Below, piece by piece: positions 3,377-54,404 of a stretch of DNA of 64,000 nt. Below the pieces are notes generated by a model, which was not told the DNA's origin, made no database searches, and saw nothing but the letters and a program-made list of their open reading frames with translations. Made by a program: the position numbers and the translations under genes. This DNA comes from Patescibacteria group bacterium (GTDB lineage: Bacteria; Patescibacteriota; Microgenomatia; UBA8517). The stretch covers positions 69,053 to 133,052 of the forward strand of contig DASVCV010000001.1 in NCBI GenBank assembly GCA_036381415.1. Reading direction: 5' to 3'. Within the stretch, counting starts at the first letter, position 1. Every line of letters begins with the position of its first letter.

Positions 3377-5356
3377 TTACTTAACGACAGGCTGAGTTTC
3401 TGTTTCTTTGTCTTTTTGCAATTTTGGATTTTTCCAGGATGCCCAATCACACTCAGGATATCTGGAGCAGCCAAAGAATGATCTTCTTTTGGCAGTTCTT
3501 TTAATAATCACTTCTCCTTCATTGCACTTAGGACATTTCATTCCTACTTTTTCTATGTATTTATCAGTGTATTTACATTCTGGAAAATTGGAACAGGATA
3601 CAAATTTTCCAAATCTTCCAATTCTTACCACCAAATCTCCTTTTTTACATTCAGGACATTTAATTCCTAATTTTTCTGTTTCTATTTTTACTCTTTTTGA
3701 ATTTTTAGTTACATCTTCAAGTTTTTTCTCAAAAGGCTTATAGAAAATTCCTATTTCTTTTTCCCACTCCTTTTTGCCATTTGCAACATTATCCAAATCT
3801 TCCTCCATGTCAGCTGTAAATTTGTAATCCAAAACTTCTGGAAAGTTGCTCATTAAAAACTCAGTAACGGCATTTCCAACAGGAGTTGGAAAGAACTTTC
3901 CTTCTTTTTTCTCCACATAAGTTCTTGCCTGAATTGTTGAAATAATTGGAGCATAGGTTGAAGGTCTTCCAATTCCTAACTTTTCCAGAGTTTTAATGAT
4001 GGATGCTTCATTGTATCTAGCTGGAGGTTCTGTAAATTTCTGGTCTGAATTAACTTTAATAAGTGTTAGAGAATCATCTTTTACTACCTCAGGCAAAATG
4101 ACTGCAGACTCATCAGTAAGCTTAGCTGGAATTACTTTTCTCCAGCCATCAAATTTCATTATTTGTCCTCCTGCTCTTAACAAATAGGTATCTGCTTTTA
4201 CATCAATTGTTGTTTCATCATATACGGATGGAGTCATCTGACATGCAATAAATCTTCTTGCTATAAGTTCATATAGTTTTTTGGCATCAAGTGCTCCTCT
4301 TCCATTAAATTCTGGAGATTTATTTGAAACATTGGTTGGACGAATTGCTTCATGGGCTTCTTGTGCAACTTTGGAAGTTGTTTTGTAAAATCTGGGAGAT
4401 TCTGGAAGATATTTTTCTCCAAATTCCTTTTTAATATAATCTCTTACTTTGGCAACTGCGGCTGAAGCAATATTGGTTGAGTCAGTTCTGTGATATGTGA
4501 TTAGTCCTTCTTCATATAGTCCCTGTGCAATAGACATTGTTCTTTTTGCACTCCAACCATAGATGCGGGCTCCTGCCTGGGTCATGGTGGAAGTTGTAAA
4601 AGGAGGATATGGATTTTTTCTTACTTCTTTTTTCCTGACATCTGAAACAATATAGCTAGCCTTATTAAGATCACTTACTACTTTGTCTGCTTCTTTTTTA
4701 TTTGAAACAGAGGCAGTTTTTTCACCTATTTTTGTCAGTGAAACTATGAACTCACTTTTACTTGCTTTTACTGGACTAACTGTACAGTAGATTTCCCAGT
4801 ATTCAACAGGCTTAAACTTTTCTATTTCTTTTTCTTTCTCCACAATAAGCCTGACTGCAACTGACTGGACACGCCCGGCTGAAAGGCCACGTCTAACTTT
4901 TTTCCAAAGAAGGGGTGAGAGCTTGTATCCAACCAATCTATCAAGAACACGACGCGCAATCTGGGCATCAACCAGATTTTTATCTACACTTCTAGGGTGA
5001 GCAAGAGCTTCTTCAACTGCTTCTTTTGTAATTTCATGGAAAACAATTCTTTGAGATTTTTTTCCATCAATTAATTCATTAACATGGGATGAAATGGCTT
5101 CTCCCTCACGGTCAGGATCAGTGGCGAGATATATCTTTTTTGCACTTTTAGCTAATTTTTGAAGTTTTTTAATTACATCTTTCTTTGCAGGAACTTCTAT
5201 ATATTCTGGCTTAAATTTTTTCTCCACATCCACACCTAGAGTTGACTTGGGCAAATCTTTAATATGGCCCATGGTTGCTTCCACTTCATATGGCTTTCCT
5301 AAAAACTTAGAAAGTGTTTTTGCTTTGGTTGGTGACTCAACAATTATTAATTCCAT
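3377..5356 (-). CDS. topA: DNA topoisomerase I
   Basis: TOPRIM N-terminus (IVESPTKAKT), the active-site region GLITYHRTDS, and three C-terminal Cys4 zinc ribbons. Confidence 0.9.
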   Translation of the reverse strand: MELIIVESPTKAKTLSKFLGKPYEVEATMGHIKDLPKSTLGVDVEKKFKPEYIEVPAKKDVIKKLQKLAKSAKKIYLATDPDREGEAISSHVNELIDGKKSQRIVFHEITKEAVEEALAHPRSVDKNLVDAQIARRVLDRLVGYKLSPLLWKKVRRGLSAGRVQSVAVRLIVEKEKEIEKFKPVEYWEIYCTVSPVKASKSEFIVSLTKIGEKTASVSNKKEADKVVSDLNKASYIVSDVRKKEVRKNPYPPFTTSTMTQAGARIYGWSAKRTMSIAQGLYEEGLITYHRTDSTNIASAAVAKVRDYIKKEFGEKYLPESPRFYKTTSKVAQEAHEAIRPTNVSNKSPEFNGRGALDAKKLYELIARRFIACQMTPSVYDETTIDVKADTYLLRAGGQIMKFDGWRKVIPAKLTDESAVILPEVVKDDSLTLIKVNSDQKFTEPPARYNEASIIKTLEKLGIGRPSTYAPIISTIQARTYVEKKEGKFFPTPVGNAVTEFLMSNFPEVLDYKFTADMEEDLDNVANGKKEWEKEIGIFYKPFEKKLEDVTKNSKRVKIETEKLGIKCPECKKGDLVVRIGRFGKFVSCSNFPECKYTDKYIEKVGMKCPKCNEGEVIIKRTAKRRSFFGCSRYPECDWASWKNPKLQKDKETETQPVVK

Positions 5357-5411
5357 AACTTTAAGTAAAGTTTAGTTTACCCCATATGTCAAGGGAGTCA
5401 GAAAAAAATTA

Positions 5412-6056
5412 TCACAAAATTGAATTTACATAATTTATGATAATTTCTGGAGACTTTCCAACAGCTGCTCCATTTTCAATTAAAAAATCTGTAATTGGAG
5501 AACCTGGAACTGCAAATACTTCTTTTCCCTGGTCTGCTGCCCAACCTGCAGTTGACCTTGTGCCACTTCTTAGGTCTCCTTCTATTACAAGAACTGCAAG
5601 TGAAAGTCCTGTGATAATCCTATTTCTTTGTAAAAAGTGGACTTGGTATGGGCCTACCTTTGAGGGATATTCTGAGACGACTGCTCCATTTTTCATTATT
5701 TGGGTATAAAGGCTTCTGTTTTCTGGAGGATATATGACATCAAGACCAGATCCTAAGACTGCAATAGTTCTTCCACCTCCCTTTAAAGCTCCTCTATGTG
5801 CGATTGTGTCAATACCTCTTGCTAAGCCAGACACTATTGTGATGCCTGATCTTGCAATGTTATACGAGAAATCTAAGGCAAGACGCTTGCCGCGCTCTGA
5901 CATTTGTCTTGTTCCAACAATTGCCACAGCCTTTTTATCTTGAGGTTTTATTTCACCATTTATATATAAAACTTGGGGTGCATTGTCTATGGTTTTTAAT
6001 GCCTCAGGATAATTTGTTTGGCTGAAATTTAGCTCCTTCATTGTCTTTGAGTCCAA
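5412..6056 (-). CDS. dprA: DNA processing protein DprA (short form)
   Basis: DprA Rossmann-core motifs IVGTRQMSERG and IVSGLARGIDTIAHRGAL. Confidence 0.75.
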   Translation of the reverse strand: MDSKTMKELNFSQTNYPEALKTIDNAPQVLYINGEIKPQDKKAVAIVGTRQMSERGKRLALDFSYNIARSGITIVSGLARGIDTIAHRGALKGGGRTIAVLGSGLDVIYPPENRSLYTQIMKNGAVVSEYPSKVGPYQVHFLQRNRIITGLSLAVLVIEGDLRSGTRSTAGWAADQGKEVFAVPGSPITDFLIENGAAVGKSPEIIINYVNSIL

Positions 6057-13565: not shown

Positions 13566-13637
13566 GCCGATGTAGCTCAAAAGTAGAGCGAGCGATTTGT
13601 AATCGCTAGGTTGAGATTGCAAAATTCTCCATCGGCT
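13566..13637 (+). tRNA. tRNA-Thr(TGT)-like with atypical D/T loops
   Basis: Hand-folded cloverleaf: acceptor GCCGATG/CATCGGC, D-stem GCTC/GAGC, anticodon stem AGCGA/TCGCT with loop TTTGTAA (anticodon TGT), and discriminator T. Deviations from canon: U19 instead of G19, G55 instead of U55, and a U-U at 53-61. Its own TATAAT lies at 13552..13557. Confidence 0.45.
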
Positions 13638-13679
13638 CAGATATTGACTTCGGATGTAATTCGGACTAATCTGAGATTA

Positions 13680-14477
13680 ATGTCCTTTGGTTTTTATTCG
13701 TCTCCTGAGTATCGAAAATCGCAATCAGATATTGCAAAGAGTAATTGGGAAAATGGGACATATTCTTTTCGCATTAAACCTCTAGAAACTCGGATTTGTA
13801 AAAACCCAGATTGCAATAAAACTTTTAGAGTAAAGCCATATGACCTCAAAATATATTGCTCACACCACTGTTCTGCTCATATTGGAAATATGGGTAGAAA
13901 ACTGTCTCTATTAACAAGACATAAAATGTCTATGTCAGCATCTCTACCCCGCTCTTTACATAAACGAAGAATTCTTCCCCGTATAAGCCTGGTATGCGTT
14001 GGATGTGGGAAAAAATTTGAGGTTGTTCCATATTTAGCTAAAAAAAGAAAATATTGCAGTTCTATGTGTGCAATTAAAACCATTGGGTCAAGAACTACTT
14101 CACCTAAGGCATCAAAAGGCAAACCAGGAATTAGAAAAGATATTGATCCAAACATTTGTTTTTATAGTACTTGGGAGGCAAATATTGCAAGAGTGTTTAA
14201 CTTGGTAGGGTTAAGGTGGGTTTATGCTCCTAAGATATTTGACCTAGGCCAACATACTTATAGACCAGATTTTTACCTTCCTGATTTTGATATGTACATA
14301 GAAGTAAAAAACTTTTTGGGTACTTATTCCCTAGAAAGGCATATTCTTTTTAAGAGAAAATATCCAAAGATAAAGCTCAAATTACTTCTAAAAAGTGATT
14401 ATCTTAAAATACAAGAAAATTACAGAGATTTAATTGATAATTGGGAAGGACCAAATGCTCCCTATCCAAAGGTGTAA
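13680..14477 (+). CDS. PD-(D/E)xK nuclease-fold protein with two N-terminal CxxC..CxHxC zinc ribbons
   Basis: Two zinc-ribbon-like modules (CKNPDCNK..CSHHC and CVGCGKK..CSSMC) and a C-terminal YRPDFYLPDFDMYIEVK motif (PD..D..ExK). The ORF-track start (TTG at 13611) would overlap the tRNA, so I used the first ATG after it. Confidence 0.4.
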   Translation: MSFGFYSSPEYRKSQSDIAKSNWENGTYSFRIKPLETRICKNPDCNKTFRVKPYDLKIYCSHHCSAHIGNMGRKLSLLTRHKMSMSASLPRSLHKRRILPRISLVCVGCGKKFEVVPYLAKKRKYCSSMCAIKTIGSRTTSPKASKGKPGIRKDIDPNICFYSTWEANIARVFNLVGLRWVYAPKIFDLGQHTYRPDFYLPDFDMYIEVKNFLGTYSLERHILFKRKYPKIKLKLLLKSDYLKIQENYRDLIDNWEGPNAPYPKV

Positions 14478-45473: not shown

Positions 45474-46244
45474 CTATAAAGTCCCTATCGCGATAACCCC
45501 AATTACACTTTCGTCTATTTTGTCGAAATCCAGTAATTGGTTTAATCCATCATCTATAAATCCTCCAATAGAACAGGCACCTAACCCAAGCTCTTGTGCA
45601 ATTAGATTTATGTTTTGAGCATAATGCCCATATTCTGTATAAATGTGTCGCAGGCCTCGATCTCCGTACTTACTTTCTGTTCTATCAAAGATAGCAGATA
45701 CAATGATTAAAAGAGACGCTTTGCGTATCCATGGCTGGTTAAATTGCTTTATGGTTTTGATGAAAAATGACTTATCGTAAATTTTTTCCAGTGAATGGCT
45801 TTTAACGTGATAATGATATATTCCTGGTTTTATATTTTCAGATCGAAAAACAATAGGATAAATTTCCAAAGGATATCTTGCTCCTGCCGATGGGTAAAAC
45901 CTTCTCTCACCGGCTTTTTTGAATAATAGTTGTTTTAGACCTCCGGAAAAATATAACAGATTGGAAAGGTCACTAATCTTAATATATTTTTTGGTAAATT
46001 TTCTTGTAGAGACTCTTTTGACCAATGCATCGTTTAGACTCCATTTTGCGGCAACTGGAACAGGTAGCAAAGCTTGGTTCATTCTCGGATAAGCTTTGTA
46101 ATAAATCTTTTTCCACTGTTCAGGCCAAGTACTATATGGAGTTTTTTTGTAATTACTGAAATCCTTTATTTTTATACTATTGTTGAACTTTCTCGACAAA
46201 GAAAGATCCAATTTCTCTAAAATACTTACAGTTTTATTTTTCAT
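45474..46244 (-). CDS. SagB/McbC-type FMN-dependent dehydrogenase (azoline oxidase)
   Basis: RRFYPSAGARYPLEIY...PGIYHYH, the hallmark of the SagB-type dehydrogenase domain, and a nitroreductase-fold C-terminus (GHYAQNINLIAQELGLGACSIGGF). Confidence 0.7.
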   Translation of the reverse strand: MKNKTVSILEKLDLSLSRKFNNSIKIKDFSNYKKTPYSTWPEQWKKIYYKAYPRMNQALLPVPVAAKWSLNDALVKRVSTRKFTKKYIKISDLSNLLYFSGGLKQLLFKKAGERRFYPSAGARYPLEIYPIVFRSENIKPGIYHYHVKSHSLEKIYDKSFFIKTIKQFNQPWIRKASLLIIVSAIFDRTESKYGDRGLRHIYTEYGHYAQNINLIAQELGLGACSIGGFIDDGLNQLLDFDKIDESVIGVIAIGTL

Positions 46245-47560
46245 AAGAATGGATGTGGGTAAGCGTTTAGTTTAGCGTTGCGTTTGTATCCTAACTTAGA
46301 TGGCACGTCATATAGCCTTTTCCCTCCCCATAGTGGAAACTTTTCGTCTAAGTATAAGGGTTGCATACCTGGAACTAAAACTTTTACAGCCTTGAAAGGA
46401 ATATTTTTAAAATACATTGGAGTTATATCTTTATAATAAATTGTATAGTTCCTTTTTCTTAAAATATTCTTTAACTGTGTAATTTGTGCCTGCACTGACA
46501 CTCTCTTATTTTTAGGTCCAATATTTTTGATTTTCAGTTCTTTAATTAAAAAGTTAATTTTAGAAATTGATCTAGGATGGTACCAAAGCAACCCTCTGTT
46601 TTTTATACTTGAATCCTCAAACAGTTTCACTTTCGAAATACTCACAGGGTTTTTAATGTATGCTTCTCTAATCCAACTCCTAGTATGAAAAGCTTCATTA
46701 ATAGATCCGACAATAGCCTTTTCCACATCTAAATTAGCTTTAAGGCCGACAGAGACAGCCTTACTTAACCCTGAACGGTCAATTAATATAGAAGCAACAA
46801 CAGGTATATCTAAATCTGTACTAATATCTACTGAATATAACTCCATGTTATACCTATCTGTAATTTCAACTAATGAACTTATAATTTTATTTTTAGAGGA
46901 TCTCAAATCATATTTTTTTGGCTTCAGTTTGTTCAAATAGTAGATCATAAAAGAATCTCTCTCAATAATTTCGTAAATTCCTGCTAAAATTGCTGAATCC
47001 AAATTAGAATGACCTGCAGCACCTGTGCTTATTGAAGGGTGTATTATTGGTTCGCTTTGAATTGGATCGTATGAAAGATAAATTGATTGGCAAGGGACAA
47101 GGTATTCTTTGCTGTTAGTTAATGATTTAACTTTTGTCCATCTAAACCTAGACTTTTCATCAATTAGAAATTTTTTATACTCGTTAATATGTAGTTGTTT
47201 CTCAGAAAAATACACAAACAACCTTGGGTTTATTGCACTAGTTTTAACATCTGAATATGTACCTGTAAAATCAACATCTTTTTGGAAAAAAGCAAAATTA
47301 CTATATCTCTCCAAAGCCTCAACTAAAGCTTTGAGTACAGCCATCTTTTGTGAGAAAAAAGAAACGCCAGAAGAATTAGAACTAAAGTGCAGACCATCAT
47401 GTGTTAGGTTCTTATCGCTTAACGTTGCAGAGTAAAACCAAAATTTAGGCTCATCATAATGTTGCCTAGTTCTTTCAAAAGACTCAACTAGATTGATTTG
47501 ACCTAGAGCAGAATCAAGCCCTTTGATTATGTTAGAAGTACTTTTTTTCATAAAACACAA
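46241..47560 (-). CDS. YcaO-domain cyclodehydratase (standalone)
   Basis: YcaO N-motif SGVSFFSQKMAVLKALVEALERYS and ATP-binding region ISTGAAGHSNLDSAILAGIYEIIERDSF. It overlaps the SagB gene by 4 nt. Confidence 0.75.
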   Translation of the reverse strand: MCFMKKSTSNIIKGLDSALGQINLVESFERTRQHYDEPKFWFYSATLSDKNLTHDGLHFSSNSSGVSFFSQKMAVLKALVEALERYSNFAFFQKDVDFTGTYSDVKTSAINPRLFVYFSEKQLHINEYKKFLIDEKSRFRWTKVKSLTNSKEYLVPCQSIYLSYDPIQSEPIIHPSISTGAAGHSNLDSAILAGIYEIIERDSFMIYYLNKLKPKKYDLRSSKNKIISSLVEITDRYNMELYSVDISTDLDIPVVASILIDRSGLSKAVSVGLKANLDVEKAIVGSINEAFHTRSWIREAYIKNPVSISKVKLFEDSSIKNRGLLWYHPRSISKINFLIKELKIKNIGPKNKRVSVQAQITQLKNILRKRNYTIYYKDITPMYFKNIPFKAVKVLVPGMQPLYLDEKFPLWGGKRLYDVPSKLGYKRNAKLNAYPHPFL

Positions 47561-47605
47561 TCAAAACTACAAAGACACTATATATCGATTCAAAGAGATA
47601 ATGCC

Positions 47606-47803
47606 TTATTTGTTCGTTTTTCTATTTTTACTACCACCATCGCATCCGCAGCTCGCGCATGATGAGCAGCTACCGCAGCTATTTGACCCACAAGCACAAT
47701 TGGAACAATTTCCACAGCTTTGTGCGCAATCGTCCTCATTGCCTGCTACAGGAATATTTTGGTGTGGTATGGCTTCAGTTAAGCTTCTTTCTTCTCTACT
47801 CAT
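47606..47803 (-). CDS. RiPP precursor peptide with Cys/Ser/Gly-rich core
   Basis: 65 aa. The leader is MSREERSLTEAIPHQNIPVAGNEDD and the core is CAQSCGNCSNCACGSNSCGSCSSCASCGCDGG. A strong SD (AAGGGGGTGA) sits 5 nt upstream of the ATG, and the stop is 45 nt upstream of ycaO. Confidence 0.6.
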   Translation of the reverse strand: MSREERSLTEAIPHQNIPVAGNEDDCAQSCGNCSNCACGSNSCGSCSSCASCGCDGGSKNRKTNK

Positions 47804-47840
47804 TCAACTCACCCCCTTTAGTACAAGACATGTGGATATC

Positions 47841-47869
47841 AATATATTCTTTGTTATAGGGTCTGTCAA
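47841..47869 (-). promoter_or_regulatory. sigma70-like promoter TTGACA-N17-TATATT for the precursor-ycaO-sagB operon
   Basis: Minus strand: TTGACA (47864..47869), a 17-nt spacer, then TATATT (47841..47846), ~37 nt upstream of the precursor ATG. Confidence 0.5.
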
Positions 47870-47934
47870 GAGTAGACAACTTTCAAAACTTGATTTATGG
47901 AGTAAGAGCCTAAGTAATGTTGGTTTATTTTACG

Positions 47935-49650
47935 TTATGGAGCTATTTCTCTCCAGATAACTCTGGTTCTTGTCAGGTCTCTTGGATATGAGAAAAGAAA
48001 GTCAGGAGCATATTGTATAAACTCTGCTGGTGTTGTTGTATTTAAGGCACCTAAATCTCTTTGAAGATTAATGCCAGATAACCCTGCTAAAGAGCCTCTA
48101 ATAGAAAGCTGACTGGCTCCTAGACCTGTTGAAATTACTCCATCTGCCAGAAACAATCCTTCAGCAGCAGGAGTTCCGGGATTGGAAGTAAGTGTAGGAT
48201 CAAAAATTATATTTCCTCCACTTCCTCCTGCATCTTTTCCTGCTATTGCCATGAAGAATCCATCTCCAACTTTTGAAACTCTAATGCTTGATGCAACTGT
48301 AAGATTTCCTCCTTTAACTAGGATTATGTATTTTCTAGAAGAATTAACATTAACATTTCCAGTTAAAGTTAGATCTCCATTTCTTCTAAACCAGACAAAT
48401 CCATGAGATGGGGTTCCGTTTGCTTGAAGGTATGCACCGCTAATTGAATCAGTTGGAATATCATTTACCTGAATATCTGATGGAATAAGTCCTTCAAAGT
48501 AAGCATAGTTATATGTTTTTCCCTGATATGTAGTATTGGTTAACCACTTCTTGGATGATACTGTTCCATTGGTTGCACCTGCTGAAAAGTCTGCAGTTGC
48601 TCCTCCATACGTAACTACTCCTGGAAAAGTTCCTGTTCCATCTAAGTTAAATGAAGGAATGCAGCCTGGAAGAGTACACGTGAGGGGAATTAAAGAAGTT
48701 AAATTTCCATTTGTAATTACATCTCCATCTTTTACCTGCCACCATGCTTTAGATGGGGCTACATTTACCGCTGTTTGTGCACTACACCTTATAGAGCCTC
48801 CCATTACTACTGAAGCACTCATAACTGTATTGCCTATTCCAACTCCTCTTACTGCTGTTCTAAATGGAGAAGAAGTTATAGGACTGGTTGCTGTTGCAAT
48901 TGCCGCATTTCCAGTATTGTAATCAATCTCAGAAATAGACCCGTTTGTAGTAGTTAGTGTTGGGGTAACACTAGTTTCACCTCCAACAAAGGCTTGTACT
49001 GATGGAGGAAGAGAGATTGTACATGTTGGTGGAGGAGGACAAAGACACGTACCTCCCTGATTTGTAAGACCAGGGGCGCAGCCACTACAAGTTCCGTAAG
49101 TAGAACAGGTTGCATCACAGTAATTTCCCTCACCATAGTTACATCTTGGATATCCAGTTGCTCCTGTATCCCAAGCACAGCCTGGAACATACCCACCACC
49201 ACAGCCAACATAGCTTTTAACACAAGACCCATTACCACAACAAATGTTGCTTTGAGCAGGATCACAATTAGATGCATTACAGCCTCCCCCACCTCCACCA
49301 CCAGGAGGAGTAGGTGTGGGACTAGAGCTTGCTATCCAGCATTTACCAGGGTTTGTTGTTGTACTACCTCCACAGTTACCGCTTCCATATTGTCCTGGAG
49401 AACAGCTAAAAGAAAAGGCAGTATAATCACACCATCCTCCCGACCCTGTTTCAAAATTACAGCTCACGTAACGGCAATTACTTGAAGGACCGTTGCATTG
49501 GTATATACCGCCTGGTATTGATGAGCAGACGTAATCATCTGTGCAAACATAGCAGGATTGAGCTTTCACTGGTTTGGGTAACAGCAATAAAACAAGTGAT
49601 AAAATTCCGAACAAAATGGAACCAAAAAGAAGATTTTTGTATATATGCAT
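47935..49650 (-). CDS. secreted Cys/Gly-rich protein (571 aa)
   Basis: N-terminal signal peptide (LFGSILFGILSLVLLLLPKPVKA) and an N-terminal half very rich in Cys/Gly/Ser/Thr with poly-Gly and PTPTPP tracts. The C-terminal half has beta-rich repeats. Confidence 0.5.
   Translation of the reverse strand: MHIYKNLLFGSILFGILSLVLLLLPKPVKAQSCYVCTDDYVCSSIPGGIYQCNGPSSNCRYVSCNFETGSGGWCDYTAFSFSCSPGQYGSGNCGGSTTTNPGKCWIASSSPTPTPPGGGGGGGCNASNCDPAQSNICCGNGSCVKSYVGCGGGYVPGCAWDTGATGYPRCNYGEGNYCDATCSTYGTCSGCAPGLTNQGGTCLCPPPPTCTISLPPSVQAFVGGETSVTPTLTTTNGSISEIDYNTGNAAIATATSPITSSPFRTAVRGVGIGNTVMSASVVMGGSIRCSAQTAVNVAPSKAWWQVKDGDVITNGNLTSLIPLTCTLPGCIPSFNLDGTGTFPGVVTYGGATADFSAGATNGTVSSKKWLTNTTYQGKTYNYAYFEGLIPSDIQVNDIPTDSISGAYLQANGTPSHGFVWFRRNGDLTLTGNVNVNSSRKYIILVKGGNLTVASSIRVSKVGDGFFMAIAGKDAGGSGGNIIFDPTLTSNPGTPAAEGLFLADGVISTGLGASQLSIRGSLAGLSGINLQRDLGALNTTTPAEFIQYAPDFLFSYPRDLTRTRVIWREIAP
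47936..47962. repeat. 27-bp direct repeat copy B
   Basis: Exact match to 43789..43815. It forms the last 8 codons plus stop of the 47935..49650 gene. Confidence 0.8.
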
Positions 49651-49721
49651 AACTATTTCATTATTGGTTTTTTTAGGAGAAAAATCAATGCCTTGATTTT
49701 ATAGGATAATGAAGAACGATA

Positions 49722-52007
49722 TTACTTATTTACGGTTATTCCAACACCGCCTCTAATGTCAATCCAGTCATTAAATTTTTGAGAAGCAAGGCTTAATAAT
49801 ATATCTGAATCGTCTATTGAACTTAATAGTTGCAGCTTTTGAGATAATTCTTCAAATCCAACCCCATTGTTTAATTTTAATTCTAAGACTTTGGCGTAAA
49901 GCTCTTTAGACAAGACAGGCTCGCCCACACCTATCATGATTTGATCGCCAGGTTTCAACATCGACAATAAGTTACTCCAGCTTATTGCCTGATCAGACTT
50001 TCCATCTGTTGAATAGGTTGGATCACCATAGCCCTCAGGTCTTTTAACATCAGAGTAATCTGGGAATAAAAATCTTACTTTGGAATAACCACCCTGAGAT
50101 GAAGGGACTATTGTACTGACTCCAATCCAATTTGTCCCATCTGGTTTTTGGACTTTTTCTCCACCTTTAACAAATATTACTCCTACGCCATACATTTTTA
50201 GATTAATATCTTTGACTTCAAATCTTAGGTGCGCTCCATATTGAGGTTTGACAAATTTACCATTAACCTGTTCAACAACTTTTTTACCTAATGGTGTAAC
50301 TGTAGCTTTCACACCCTCAATCTCGATTGAGCTTATATTCGTGCCTGATCCATTAACTTTTACATTTATATTTTCCGGTTGGCTGGAACTTCCTGCATCT
50401 GGATTTATTTTTGGACTAAATGGTGCTTCTTGAGGAACTTCAGTTGGTGCAATATCAGATAGAACATCTGAATCAGGATTTGCTAGAGGAATTGATCCGT
50501 TGTCTGCAAAAAGAACAAGAGGGCGGCCGTCTCTGGTTAGTTGAGCAAATGTCCAATCTCCTTCTACTGCATCAAATGTGGTTCCATTTTTACCCACTAC
50601 CCCTTTGACTATTTTCTTGAGTGCTTCAGTTACCTTAATTACTTTTGTAACAGTTTCAGGAATTCCTTTGAATTTTATGGGATCTACATATTTAAGCTGA
50701 TTGTCTTTTGCTCCAAAAAGGCCATTGTTGCCAAGGTATATATTTTTATTCTTTTCTGCATAATCAGTAAGAGATACTTTGTTTCCATCATTTAATCCCC
50801 AAACCCTTACAAGAGGATATACATAGATTTCTCCACTTGGAAGCTTGGTTGCTATATATTCAAGATTTAATTTGGCTCCCTGCTCTTTAGCAAATTTCAT
50901 GAAGGGAATTAAGCTTCCAACCATTTGTCCTAATGGAGAATCAGCTTCTAATAACATGGATCCTTCAATATTTATAAATAACTTGCCATCTTTTTGAACA
51001 AGTGGATTTGCTGGGATATTTATATCTTTAGAAATTGCAGCAAAGTCATCTGCTTTAACTTCATATGATTTAAGCAACCTATCCTGTTGGTCAGGAGTGA
51101 GTTTGATACGTGGAAGTGAAATTAAATTCTCAACTTCTCCAGGAGCAAATTCTTTTCCTCCAGCAAGTACAGGAAATGCATATGGAGCATTACTTTCCTG
51201 AATACTATTAGGACTTACTCTTTTTGAAAGATCAAATATTTTGTCTACATTTTTGGCAGCATTTATTCCTGGCCAAGGATCTCCACCTTTAAAATTTTCT
51301 GGAGCTGGAAGAGTTTTGGCAATAGACAGCAGGGTTGCTATTTCACCAATTTTAAATTCAAATGTTTGTGGTTGAGGTTTTCTTTGCTGTTCAGCGTAGG
51401 CCACTGATCCTGCTCCAACTGCTCCTGCTGTTGCAACTGCAACGGCTGCAGCTACTTTTTTATTGACTATGTGTTTTACAGCTGGACCTTCTTGAGGAAT
51501 AGATTGCAAAAATCTTTCTTTTGCATCTTCAATCTGGGCTTTTAACTGTCTTGTTTGAATAGCAGCTTCTGTGTTGTTTTTGCGTTTGTGTTTTAAGAAG
51601 TCTGAAATTTGCCCCAAATTTTCATCAACCTGGTCTAATTTTTTAACTGCATCCAATGCTTTTATTTCTTTGTCTGTCTCAGATATTTCAGTCTTTCCGA
51701 CTTGCTTTTGCACAGCTTTGGTAAACTCTGTGACTCTATCCAAGTCGCTTTGGTGGACTGTTATTACATCTGGGTTAATTGTGAGGTCGTGTGCTTCATA
51801 GAGCTTCTTACCTACAACTTCATTGCCTTCTCTTATTAGTTTGCTGTAGAGGCCAACATTATGCTGGATGGCAGCATCAAGATTCTGTCTCTTTTCTGCG
51901 AGACCTAATTCTTCAAGGGTTTTTGCCCTTCTTGATTGTTCTGATAGGTTTATCTGTTCTGCACTCATATCTTTTAAGTTTTTTACCTCTACTTGCTGAT
52001 CAGTCAT
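49722..52007 (-). CDS. large hypothetical membrane-anchored protein (761 aa)
   Basis: N-terminal coiled-coil region, one TM segment (VAAAVAVATAGAVGAG), and a large C-terminal domain with no recognised motifs. Confidence 0.45.
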   Translation of the reverse strand: MTDQQVEVKNLKDMSAEQINLSEQSRRAKTLEELGLAEKRQNLDAAIQHNVGLYSKLIREGNEVVGKKLYEAHDLTINPDVITVHQSDLDRVTEFTKAVQKQVGKTEISETDKEIKALDAVKKLDQVDENLGQISDFLKHKRKNNTEAAIQTRQLKAQIEDAKERFLQSIPQEGPAVKHIVNKKVAAAVAVATAGAVGAGSVAYAEQQRKPQPQTFEFKIGEIATLLSIAKTLPAPENFKGGDPWPGINAAKNVDKIFDLSKRVSPNSIQESNAPYAFPVLAGGKEFAPGEVENLISLPRIKLTPDQQDRLLKSYEVKADDFAAISKDINIPANPLVQKDGKLFINIEGSMLLEADSPLGQMVGSLIPFMKFAKEQGAKLNLEYIATKLPSGEIYVYPLVRVWGLNDGNKVSLTDYAEKNKNIYLGNNGLFGAKDNQLKYVDPIKFKGIPETVTKVIKVTEALKKIVKGVVGKNGTTFDAVEGDWTFAQLTRDGRPLVLFADNGSIPLANPDSDVLSDIAPTEVPQEAPFSPKINPDAGSSSQPENINVKVNGSGTNISSIEIEGVKATVTPLGKKVVEQVNGKFVKPQYGAHLRFEVKDINLKMYGVGVIFVKGGEKVQKPDGTNWIGVSTIVPSSQGGYSKVRFLFPDYSDVKRPEGYGDPTYSTDGKSDQAISWSNLLSMLKPGDQIMIGVGEPVLSKELYAKVLELKLNNGVGFEELSQKLQLLSSIDDSDILLSLASQKFNDWIDIRGGVGITVNK

Positions 52008-52177
52008 ATGGTTAAATTTATATTAATTATAACCACAAGGCAAGTGGCTTGACTTATAGTGGGAAATTATAACAACTTCTATCCTAAAGTCAAATATTAT
52101 AAGCTGTAACTTATACTTGAGCTTGATCCTAAATATCCTTATATATAGGTTATTTAGCTCAACAATATTTATGGCGT

Positions 52178-52200
52178 AAAAAAGCCGCCCTATTGGCGGC
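52178..52200 (-). terminator. rho-independent terminator (GCCGCC-aatag-GGCGGC + U6) on the minus strand
   Basis: 6-bp GC stem immediately followed by TTTTTT on the minus strand. It lies between the 49722..52007 gene start and the ORF-poor region. Confidence 0.5.
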
Positions 52201-53008
52201 TCCCGGCCTTACCCTTTTTTAGAGTAAGTAACCAACTTACAGCTGGTATATTTAATTGCATTCCGTATACTATTATACCATGTTTCTCAAACAGAAGAAT
52301 AACTTTGTGAACATTGAAGCAGACAAGACTTAAATGAATGAATCGTGACGTCAACAACTAATTTGACACACGTTAGGTTTAATAATATATTATAGGTTGC
52401 ATATTCTTAATGGATATATTTTTCTAAAAGCACGTTTACACAAGGTTCAAATCTTTACTGGTAAGACCATTATTCATTCTGCATAGTTGATATCTTGCCA
52501 ATAAAGACAAGAATCATACTCACCTCTTTTTTGAGGTAACTCCAGACCAGAAGCGGTCTGATAGTTACAACAATGAAAAGATCCTTGAAGGAACAGTCAG
52601 ACAGGCTAAATTGCCCAGATGGTGCAAAACCGCTTACTCTCACCCTGTGAGAGGAAAACTGTAGCGAAACAAGAAAACACCAAGAGTGGCAGAAGCTAGT
52701 CTAAACTCAAACCTTAAGCACGGCTTTAAAGCCAGTAGCCCAATAAAGGGAACCTGTAAGGATTTCTCCTTACGCAAGATCATCGATGAGGTGATAGTTG
52801 ACACAATACGACCAAAACGATGCTGCACGAGACACTGACAGCAGTACTAGTGACGTTCGAGATGCATGGCATGACGCACGTACTGATGCAGAAGATTCGG
52901 GATATCTCGACAGAGGTTCCGATTCTGGTAGCAGCGGACAAGGTGGAAGCGGTACTGATTCGACCGGAACCCATTCGGACGACTAAAGTCAGCCGCTGAC
53001 AACTGAAT

Positions 53009-53048
53009 CATTCGCACCAGGTATGCGTTTTACGCATACCTGCGAATG
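53009..53048 (+). other. long bulged hairpin (core GGTATGCG-TTTTA-CGCATACC)
   Basis: 8-bp perfect core stem extended by TTCGCA/TGCGAA pairing; it lies 40 nt upstream of the M16 peptidase gene. Confidence 0.4.
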
Positions 53049-53087
53049 GTATAAACATTTTTCATTGAGAATGTATATAATAACCCT

Positions 53088-54404
53088 ATGCAATATGATC
53101 TAAATGACCTTTTGATTAAGCCTTCTTCAAACGAAGAAGAGAAATATTGTAAAAAGTACAATATCCATATTAGAAGATTAGAAAACGGCGCTACTATTTT
53201 AGGGATCCCCTGTAAAAAAGACTTTACTTCTTGGGCTCAAATTAAATATGAATTTTTAGAGGGAGCTTATGGCAATAAACCAGGCAGTGTGCATCTTTTG
53301 GAACACTTTATAAACAAAAAAACAAAGCGTACTGCTAACGAAAACTCACTTAATATCGGTGCTTATACGAATTTAACTGAAATCGGAGAAGAAGTATCAG
53401 GCATTGCAAACCCGGCCGCCCTCGATTATGGAGTTTGGACAATTTTAGATCAGATTAGAAAGTCTCTCGAGTCTCCTTTAATAAATGTTGATAATATTGA
53501 AAAAACTCTAGAAACAGAGCGAGATGTCATAAAAGCAGAAATTCAAAAACGCGATAGCGACCAAAACTTTCAGATTAGCAAGCACTTTAACCATGTAGTT
53601 TTTTCTAAGGAAAATCCTCTACACGATGTTTCTTTAATAACTGGAACGGAAAAAGATTTGAATAAATTATCATCCGATATGTTAAAGGACATTGAAAGAA
53701 GGATTTTGATTGCTAAAAATCTTTTGATTAGCTTCTATACCGAAGGAGATCTTTCAATAGCAGATGTTATCGAAAAAGAGTTGGAAAATTCTTTTTCAGA
53801 CTTCCCAACAGATGAAAAAGAAGGATTAAATAGAAGATTGTTGGAAAAAATTAACCCCAACCTTTTGCCTGGCAGTACTTATTCCCAGGATTCAGGTATT
53901 AAAAATGGAATCATTACGACAGAATTTGTGTGGACCCTAAATCATAAATTTCCCTCTGATAAACATTTAGGTTTACTGCTCCTTTATAAAATAATCGCAA
54001 CTGAACTGTTTTTATATTCTAGAAAAATGGGTTGGGGTTATTTTACGGATACTATTTTAACCAGACCAACTAACAATTTAGTACTTTTAAGGTTAAGGAT
54101 TGATGCTAGGAAGGATAACCAAAAAGAATTATTAAAGGGTATAAAAGAAGTGCTGCTTTCTATAAAAAAGGTCAGCCAGTCGGTTGTTGAAAACGAAAAG
54201 AAAAGACAGAAAGCTATTCCAATAAATGCGGTTGCTAGACTCTCTTGGATAGTAAATGGAATTAAAGACTATGGTGCAATGATAGATGCAGATAAAGTTA
54301 GAGATAATAAATTAGGTGTAACACCGCAAATTTTAAATGAATTAGTGGATGAACTAATATCTATTCCACCCACAATAATTGTTACCGGAGACATAAATTA
54401 TTAA
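53088..54404 (+). CDS. M16-family (pitrilysin-like) zinc peptidase
   Basis: Inverted zinc motif HLLEH in the context GSVHLLEHFINKKTKRT (HxxEH...). Confidence 0.5.
   Translation: MQYDLNDLLIKPSSNEEEKYCKKYNIHIRRLENGATILGIPCKKDFTSWAQIKYEFLEGAYGNKPGSVHLLEHFINKKTKRTANENSLNIGAYTNLTEIGEEVSGIANPAALDYGVWTILDQIRKSLESPLINVDNIEKTLETERDVIKAEIQKRDSDQNFQISKHFNHVVFSKENPLHDVSLITGTEKDLNKLSSDMLKDIERRILIAKNLLISFYTEGDLSIADVIEKELENSFSDFPTDEKEGLNRRLLEKINPNLLPGSTYSQDSGIKNGIITTEFVWTLNHKFPSDKHLGLLLLYKIIATELFLYSRKMGWGYFTDTILTRPTNNLVLLRLRIDARKDNQKELLKGIKEVLLSIKKVSQSVVENEKKRQKAIPINAVARLSWIVNGIKDYGAMIDADKVRDNKLGVTPQILNELVDELISIPPTIIVTGDINY

Follow-up and report, generated by a model that had tools for sequence, protein, structure and literature searches.

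What fills the space between two divergently oriented genes of a Patescibacteria group bacterium when no long open reading frame (ORF) occupies it and its DNA is markedly richer in GC than the surrounding AT-rich genome? The space in question is a gap (52008-53087) in the window, the whole stretch of 64,000 nucleotides (nt) analyzed here, and is bounded by a 761-amino-acid (aa) gene on the minus strand, whose start codon lies at 52007, and by a 438-aa gene on the plus strand that starts at 53088. A sequence-only reading had described the gap as ORF-poor and hairpin-dense and had proposed a novel structured RNA, a leader or riboswitch for the downstream M16 peptidase, or a fragment of foreign DNA. 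The four short hairpins, the 3' hairpin, the minus-strand terminator sequence and the rise in GC that it reported all lie where it placed them, and the longest ORFs within the gap do not exceed 62-64 aa; however, the gap does contain a gene, namely the 62-aa ORF. It is probably a compact plus-strand transcription unit, with a structured leader, a mini-gene and a 3' hairpin, together with a divergent region that holds the putative promoter of the 761-aa gene.

The leader is a structured 5' RNA, termed class I (52520..52797, plus strand), that was recognized by folding, homologues and a covariance model. From 5' to 3' on the plus strand it contains P1 (52522-52537), the P2 hairpin CAGACC-agaagc-GGTCTG (52543-52560), a box, GAUCCUUGAAGGA (52580-52592), and a long-range helix, P3, formed by 52599-52607 with 52694-52702. 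P3 encloses a nested three-helix core on A-rich linkers (GGUG/CACC, CGCU/AGCG and CUCUCAC/GUGAGAG; 52621-52681), the inner helix of which is the hairpin CTCTCAC-cct-GTGAGAG (52637-52653). There follow the Px hairpin, GGCTTTAAAGCC (52722-52733), a second box, AGCCCAAUAAAGGGAA, with a CCC/GGG hairpin (52737-52752), the Pb hairpin GTAAGG-atttct-CCTTAC (52756-52773), the 3' strand of a closing helix, CAAGAUC (52775-52781), and an anti-Shine-Dalgarno (anti-SD) sequence, AUCAUC (52779-52784). Compared with dinucleotide shuffles, the segment 52520-52800 folds with a z-score of -4.57, and none of 200 shuffles was equally stable. The z-scores of the three full-length examples (the window and the homologous loci L012 and L006) are -4.6, -4.3 and -3.9, and minimum-free-energy (MFE) predictions made separately for each of them all show Pa, Pb, the nested core and the long-range P3. 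Before the TTG that starts the 62-aa ORF, each plus-strand frame is interrupted by stop codons, and three-frame translation revealed no conserved upstream ORF in the leader.

Comparison with Rfam 15 (4227 families) gave no match to the leader, at permissive thresholds too; at gathering thresholds no family matched in the gap, and only four tRNAs were found in the window. Seven homologous loci likewise had no Rfam match at E <= 0.05. ARAGORN reported three tRNAs elsewhere in the window and no tRNA or transfer-messenger RNA (tmRNA) in the gap. Searches of Rfam 15 and the literature yielded no description of this leader and none of a similar RNA motif specific to Patescibacteria.

A conserved non-coding leader followed by a small acidic ORF, a hairpin and an M16-like peptidase gene is present in nine independent loci. 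The L-numbered loci were fetched mainly around homologues of the peptidase, which were retrieved with profile scans of genome contigs (a scan with the single protein returned none); L022, L024 and L027 carry the type-c mini-protein described below. Full-length class I leaders, with a domain of ~220 nt, occur in the window, in L012 and its variant L040, and in L006, and short forms in L002 and L007. The window, L012 and L006 have in common the boxes CCUUGAAGGA, GAGGAAAA(A/C)U and AGCC(C/U)AAUA..GGGAA as well as the Shine-Dalgarno (SD) sequence. The boxes CCTTGAAGGA and AGCCYAATAnnGGGAA occur once per locus, solely upstream of the small ORF, and the 3' box with the hairpin that follows it has no other match in 217 kb on both strands. 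Viral contigs scanned with CCTTGAAGGA..AATAnnGGGAA yielded 11 hits, all of them chance matches inside phage genes.

Between the leader boxes, helix positions are kept and sequences are changed. P2 is CAGACC/GGUCUG in the window, CAGAAC/GUUUUG in L012, AGAGCC/GGCUCU in L006, AAGACU/AGUCUU in L002 and CAAACU/AGUUUG in L007, and Pb is UAAGG/CCUUA, UUGGU/ACCAA, CUGG/CCAG, GUUGG/CCAAU and UUGGU/ACCAA in the same order. For the nested core, which has entries for the window, L012 and L006 and none for L002 and L007, the outer helix reads GGUG/CACC, UCGC/GCGA and CUCG/CGAG, the middle helix CGCU/AGCG, CGCU/AGCG and GGCA/UGCC, and the inner helix CUCAC/GUGAG, UUUUC/GAAGA and CUCGC/GCGAG. Because MAFFT alignments put the helices out of register, a covariance model with a structure of 51 pairs was built from no sequence but that of the window, and the other loci were aligned to it with Infernal. 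This model finds L012 and L040 over their full length (E ~1e-9). On the resulting alignment, paired cells amount to 90.3% and compensatory changes affect 17 pairs, whereas controls with slid partners give 30-46% and 0-3, respectively; none of 500 shuffles reached the observed values. Of the four short hairpins noted at the outset, three (P2, Pb and the inner helix of the core) covary as helices of the leader. Judged by this comparison of sequences, the leader, at 52.54-52.8 kb, is a conserved structured RNA with compensatory changes that matches no Rfam family, in line with the novel structured RNA among the earlier candidates. It is thus a candidate for a new structured leader RNA of ~200-280 nt in Patescibacteria.

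A second group of leaders, class II, was observed in L003 (5100-5281), L009 (2990-3156), L015 (3650-3828) and L020 (1-85). These leaders share their first hairpin with class I, with an AGAUCCU box in L003 and L009, and differ in the 3' module. Their hairpins, UUGGAUUCCACACUUUGCGUGGUUUUAAUCCAA and CAGACCGCAYGUAAGCGGA, lie upstream of small acidic ORFs adjoining the same peptidase family; no Rfam match to class II leaders was found.

The 62-aa ORF downstream of the leader (52798..52986, plus strand, TTG start) had been treated as incidental. Its homologues, codon pattern and open frame mark it as a true gene, on which purifying selection acts. A profile search yielded four homologues of 74-82 aa (P0051-54), which are 74-77% identical to it in a MAFFT alignment and 78-83% identical by BLAST over the aligned segment. 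At the DNA level, comparison with type-c loci aligns the ORF alone (72-76% identity). Differences between copies of the mini-gene number 13, 9 and 42 at codon positions 1, 2 and 3, and 31 codon changes are synonymous versus 16 non-synonymous. The frame is the sole one open in all four genomes. The 59-aa ATG ORF singled out earlier in another frame and a 64-aa ORF on the minus strand have stop codons in the homologues, and by this comparison both are shadow frames. The TTG start is supported because many relatives begin with M-x-x-Y-D, as does the window mini-protein, and because the SD sequence GAGGUGAU lies 6 nt upstream. The ORF was also called as a gene on a Logan contig.

An exhaustive profile search collected 102 cluster representatives of the mini-protein at E <= 1e-3, nearly all of 42-160 aa, with the motif Y-D-x-K-D-A-A-K-D-T-x-x-S-x-x-E/D-V-x-x-A-W-H-D-A-R. 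A family of at least this size, with a conserved 35-residue head, has been missed by gene callers and domain databases, searches of Pfam and of PDB sequences giving no match to it, and no description of these peptide families was found in the literature. The window protein is very acidic (isoelectric point 4.05). Its residues 1-35 are predicted to form a helix-turn-helix (HTH)-like head (DAAxDT...AWHDAR) and residues 36-62 a disordered tail rich in D, S, G and T; AlphaFold, run with the family alignment, places a helix at residues 6-13, a turn and a helix at residues 17-34, with a predicted local distance difference test (pLDDT) score of ~90 for residues 1-30, followed by the disordered tail.

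The composition of the gap follows from these two elements. GC is 0.45 in the leader (52540-52797) and 0.51 (0.513) in the mini-gene (52798-52986), compared with 0.31-0.32 further left in the gap and 0.365 in the whole window. Host codon usage predicts a GC of 0.483 for the mini-gene versus the observed 0.513; thus, its D/S/G/T-rich amino acid composition accounts for the greater part of the right-hand rise. GC at third codon positions (GC3) is 0.37 in the ORF and 0.26 in the host. The rise in the gap has two causes, the D, G, S, T, A and R codons of the 62-aa ORF and the base-paired helices of the leader. As this case illustrates, ORF-poor, GC-rich islands in AT-rich genomes can be small genes with structured untranslated regions (UTRs). 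Patescibacteria, members of the candidate phyla radiation (CPR), have small and poorly annotated genomes.

Leader and mini-gene would be transcribed together from one or two promoters of the sigma-70 type (52363-52391 and/or 52487-52514), yielding an mRNA with a 5' leader of 280-400 nt. The distal promoter-like sequence, TTGACA-17-TATATT (52363..52391, plus strand), matches 11 of 12 consensus positions, and its -10 box with the following ATAGGTTGCA resembles TATATT-ATGGGTATCG, which L012, L002 and L007 have at their leaders. The proximal one, TTGATA-16-AAGAAT (52487..52514, plus strand), is weak (9 of 12) and aligns pairwise with the promoter of L012. Promoter calls in the gap, and the transcription start sites that they would imply, are consensus matches only; six sites like the minus-strand one at 52066..52093, described below, were found versus 4.4 expected in shuffles.

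The transcribed leader would fold into the P2 hairpin, the closing helix, the long-range P3, the three nested helices on their A-rich linkers, Pa and Pb, and the folded domain would end right at the ribosome-binding site (RBS) of the TTG-initiated 62-codon gene. The GAGG core of the SD sequence (GAGGUGAU, 52788..52795, plus strand) lies 6 nt before the TTG, and both the SD, which aligns with GAGGTGAAAAATG, and the start codon of the mini-gene align with those of L012. The SD is predicted to pair either with the anti-SD AUCAUC (52779-52784), which can bind its GGUGAU (52790-52795), or with UCACCUC (52520-52526); in the MFE structure of the leader it is this extreme 5' end that pairs with GAGGUGA instead. 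The predicted closing helix, in turn, joins GAUC-C-UUG (52580-52587) to CAAGAUC (52775-52781). Closing helix and anti-SD/SD pairing share nucleotides A52779-C52781, so that only one of them can form at a time; through these three nucleotides, how the domain folds and whether the SD is accessible would depend on each other. From this overlap we infer a control in cis of mini-gene translation, which the modelled structures suggest as the likeliest role of the leader; its effector may be a small ligand, an ion, a protein or temperature. The SD of L012 is predicted to lie within a hairpin, UUCAC/GUGAA, that likewise shares sequence with the closing helix, and in L006 a portion of the SD is predicted to fall within the closing helix, CCUUG/CAAGG.

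Just after the stop codon of the mini-gene lies a conserved AAC(U/C)GAAU box (53001..53008, plus strand), which is also present in L012 (~599-606), L006 (3067-3075), L002 (5575-5582) and L007 (1568-1575). It is complementary to AUUCGGU, unique in the leaders of L012, L002 and L007; the window has AUUCGG at 52973-52978. The complementarity may reflect a 5'-3' pairing that brackets the ORF; in RNAduplex comparisons of leader and 3' UTR, shuffles scored equally well. The box is followed by the bulged 3' hairpin (53009..53048, plus strand; -36 to -38 kcal/mol for the region, z -5.6 versus dinucleotide shuffles), and every homologous locus has a strong hairpin at the same position. The U run of the hairpin is displaced, and the hairpin is therefore not a canonical intrinsic terminator; it would end or stabilize the transcript of the mini-gene. 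The best permissive Rfam match in the gap, TLS-PK5 (35.7 bits versus a gathering threshold of 70), covers this hairpin only and is a mere resemblance between hairpins.

Long hairpins following the ORF were observed at ~613-670 in L012, ~3085-3175 in L006, ~203-255 in L010 and ~5534-5607 in L003. They share covarying stems (GAGAAAGAGUGG.../...CCACUCUUUCUC; AGAAAAUGAGU.../...ACUCAUUUUCU), and those of L012, L006 and L010 have a conserved apex, GUGGG(U/A)NYCAGYC; the hairpin that the window has in this position is a different one.

The 438-aa gene has a promoter-like sequence of its own, TAAACA-18-TATAAT (53052..53090, plus strand), with the -10 box at 53076-53081, 6 nt before the ATG at 53088, and no SD. 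The same layout, TATAAT 5 to 7 nt before ATG and no SD, is found in L012 (~665-688), L014 (~1973-1992), L008, L011 and L013. The peptidase mRNA is thus probably a separate, leaderless transcript, to judge from this layout, which argues against the leader RNA serving the peptidase, one of the roles first envisaged for it; the leader instead precedes the SD and TTG of the 62-aa ORF. The assignment of the downstream gene to M16-like peptidases was correct. Although the 438-aa window protein alone has no Pfam match, H69, E72, H73, E144 and E151 are invariant in 19 homologues, the first three forming the HxxEH motif, and PF05193 is recorded on three of the homologues. In searches of the PDB, the peptidase profile matched the mitochondrial processing peptidase beta subunit (MPP-beta; E 4.6e-7) and a bacterial M16 'processing protease' (3hdi; E 3e-5). 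The sequence features identify the protein as a divergent M16 member, in which either E144 or E151 would be the distal zinc ligand. The protein is identical in sequence to an NCBI protein named from a 'Patescibacteria group bacterium' metagenome-assembled genome.

Three kinds of small acidic protein sit between leader and peptidase. Type a is His/Asp-rich (25 clusters), type b has the motif VQGLAxWLG...SGGCxQ, and type c is the family of the 62-aa window protein; between types a and c, profile-profile comparison with hhalign revealed no homology (probability 0.1%). The place beside the M16-like peptidase is thus a recurring slot in which unrelated acidic mini-proteins are exchanged, and mini-protein and peptidase may be functionally tied. 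A broader proposal is that a Patescibacteria-specific, riboswitch-like leader gates the translation of interchangeable acidic mini-proteins, from three unrelated families of which one possibly mimics sigma region 4, that work with or are processed by the divergent M16 peptidase. We consider this proposal unlikely as a whole; if it were true, it would describe a new class of regulatory RNA tied to a new module of small protein and protease in the CPR. Loci of type a also have an unannotated gene for 117-125 aa between the small acidic ORF and the peptidase. In L006 (3196-4425), this place is taken by a 409-aa HExxH protein (DLIHEIGHTHY; weak matches to Peptidase_M78 and M2).

Outside the slot, type c has other partners. 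In L022, L024 and L027 it lacks a class I leader, does not adjoin the peptidase and is followed directly, or with overlap, by a gene for an 89-112-aa protein that consists of sigma-70 region 2 only (Sigma70_r2); the pairs lie at 5001-5506, 5001-5526 and 309-795, respectively. The head of the mini-protein may have some likeness to the HTH of sigma region 4.2: in Foldseek searches with residues 6-34, the top PDB matches were the extracytoplasmic function (ECF) factor SigD4 (3vfz/3vep), the sigma-like domain of PhyR (3t0y) and sigma-70, at a non-significant E of 5-10 (5-7 for SigD4 and PhyR, with a template-modelling (TM) score of 0.45-0.5 over ~30 residues), and in our reading the type-c motif V..AWH.AR resembles TVKSRLHRAR of ECF region 4.2. 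Unlike region 4, which is basic, the mini-protein has an acidic surface; none of 25 family members matched Pfam Sigma70_r4/r4_2 at E <= 1, a PDB sequence search with the family gave no match at E <= 10, and the window contains no Sigma70_r2-only mini-gene. Mimicry of a sigma factor by the type-c head is a lead suggested by structure prediction rather than a finding; if the mini-protein does mimic region 4, it would provide an unusual route of transcription control. The pairing of type c, with its weak region-4-like fold, and Sigma70_r2 looks like a split or degenerate sigma-like pair. Upstream of type c in L027, at ~240-290, the sequence GCGGGG...CCCCGC...GCGGGG-U7 resembles an attenuator with alternative terminator and antiterminator pairings.

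Several observations weigh against a structured leader that controls the mini-gene. The full-length structure draws its statistical weight from two lineages only (the window and L012/L040), and a second model, R2, places L002 and L006 correctly but at noise-level E values (0.1 and 1.8). The alignment used for counting pairs was fitted to the model, the structure of which had the window as its own source. Two firm lineages and one probable lineage make for a thin comparative base; the latter, L006, is supported by its exact boxes, a curated helix table and its own MFE structure, with a non-significant covariance-model score. The logic of SD sequestration differs between loci, as L006 illustrates, so that the direction of regulation is not inferable. 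The type-c mini-protein of the window follows no such leader elsewhere (L022, L024, L027), and the combination of leader and ORF in the window is therefore a single observed one. Finally, the palindromic box TCCTTGAAGGA could be a DNA operator instead.

That last point leads to control at the level of DNA, in which the divergent intergenic region would contain operators and promoters, the hairpins would be incidental and the sequence might be what is left of a decayed or foreign gene. Three loci retain the perfect 11-bp palindrome TCCTTGAAGGA, and the GC3 of the ORF is slightly above that of the host (0.37 versus 0.26). However, conservation of DNA sites does not predict compensatory double changes in 17 pairs, and the GC of the ORF is mostly explained by composition. 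The foreign DNA or decayed gene of the sequence-only reading fares no better: stop codons interrupt all frames, tblastn and blastx-type searches revealed no match to neighbouring genes, those of genes from homologous loci against the gap giving noise, and the conservation is RNA-like. Control by DNA sites is thus the least probable of the alternatives and hardly to be expected. That the conserved region is a free-standing non-coding RNA acting in trans, which merely happens to lie upstream of the mini-gene, is very unlikely as well. Its structure, GC enrichment and conservation would suit such an RNA, but neither a terminator nor a 3' end lies between domain and ORF, in each of the three full-length examples the closing helix abuts and overlaps anti-SD and SD, and SD and start codon fall within the conserved alignment.

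The leader could also be more specific than a control element of the mini-gene. As a sharper form of the same explanation, it would be a ligand-sensing riboswitch, with an aptamer for a metabolite or ion and an SD-sequestering platform. Like translational riboswitches and SD-sequestering and ribosomal-protein leaders, it appears to have, right before an RBS, a sizeable and conserved domain of several covarying helices with unpaired boxes that do not vary, and one strand of a helix, the closing helix, is predicted to be shared with the anti-SD; the Asp/His-rich small proteins beside a zinc peptidase hint at a metal-related cargo. Unlike known riboswitches, it fits no Rfam 15 family, has few representatives, all in Patescibacteria, and precedes a 62-codon ORF, the function of which gives no clue to a ligand. 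The SD logic is inconsistent between loci, and RNA-binding proteins or plain stabilization of the mRNA explain the same data. A riboswitch thus has a small though appreciable chance of being the right description; if the leader does sense a ligand, it would offer a handle on what these uncultivated bacteria monitor. Another possibility places the emphasis on the peptide: the small acidic ORF would encode a precursor or substrate of the adjacent M16-like peptidase in a module resembling those of ribosomally synthesized peptides with post-translational modifications (RiPPs), with 5' UTR and 3' hairpin ensuring high and stable expression. PqqA and M16 proteases of the PqqF/G type are such a pair of RiPP precursor and leader peptidase. 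In some RiPP pathways leader peptides are cleaved off by M16 proteases, for example PttP1/PttP2 of a class III lanthipeptide (PMC10885120). The succession of small ORF, hairpin and M16 peptidase gene, kept in nine loci, resembles these systems, and the peptidase retains HxxEH and the distal Glu residues. However, no linked modifying enzyme is encoded on the plus strand, and the YcaO and dehydrogenase genes of the minus strand have their own Cys-rich precursor (47606..47803). Three unrelated, interchangeable peptide families occupy the slot (hhalign probability 0.1%), the window peptide has a predicted folded HTH-like head and is elsewhere paired with a mini-sigma gene and not with the peptidase, and the peptidase has a leaderless promoter of its own. 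A RiPP-like module is therefore rather improbable, and cis control of the mini-gene by its leader is preferred.

To the left in the gap, a promoter-like sequence for the 761-aa gene, TTGACT-16-TGnTATAAT (52066..52093, minus strand), matches 11 of 12 consensus positions and has the TG extension. Upstream of it lies a sequence resembling an intrinsic terminator, GCCGCC-AAUAG-GGCGGC-U6 (52178..52200, minus strand), which is apparent from sequence and MFE. With its GC-rich stem of 6 bp, its loop of 5 nt and its U6 tract it resembles intrinsic terminators; unlike them, it ends no gene or known RNA. A consensus scan for terminators did not list this site, probably because part of the U tract is taken up in the predicted stem. 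The minus-strand transcript previously deduced from the terminator is plausible. A candidate of ~90 nt (52176..52280, minus strand) has an extended -10 box, TGGTATAAT (52280->52272), three hairpins and the terminator, and the 91 nt of 52266->52176 fold with a z-score of -4.2, none of 200 shuffles being as stable. Its sole ORF is an unconvincing 55-aa TTG ORF, and neither a homologue nor an Rfam match to it was found. On its sequence features, the segment 52176..52280 could encode a small RNA, shield the 761-aa gene from read-through or mark where an antisense transcript ends.

Left of the gap, within 45474..52007, the minus strand carries a RiPP cluster of the thiazole/oxazole-modified microcin (TOMM) type. 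It includes genes for a nitroreductase/SagB-like dehydrogenase (45474..46244) and a YcaO/SagD protein (46241..47560) and a 65-aa Cys/Ser/Gly-rich TOMM precursor, MSREERSLTEAIPHQNIPVAGNEDDCAQSCGNCSNCACGSNSCGSCSSCASCGCDGGSKNRKTNK (47606..47803), in place of which the gene caller picked an overlapping 49-aa frame on a Logan contig. The gap was rejected as the source of a TOMM precursor because the Cys-rich precursor is already present at 47606..47803. The 571-aa and 761-aa proteins encoded upstream in the cluster have no Pfam or NCBIfam match. The 571-aa protein (47935..49650, minus strand) has a homologue in L022 (8504-9853; 37% identity over 341 aa, E 1e-53), encoded four genes downstream of the type-c mini-protein; the pair are thus neighbours in two genomes. 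Elsewhere in the window, the fourth tRNA found by Rfam (13566..13637, plus strand, 56.6 bits), which is absent from the ARAGORN list, overlaps the start of a 288-aa TTG ORF (13611..14477).

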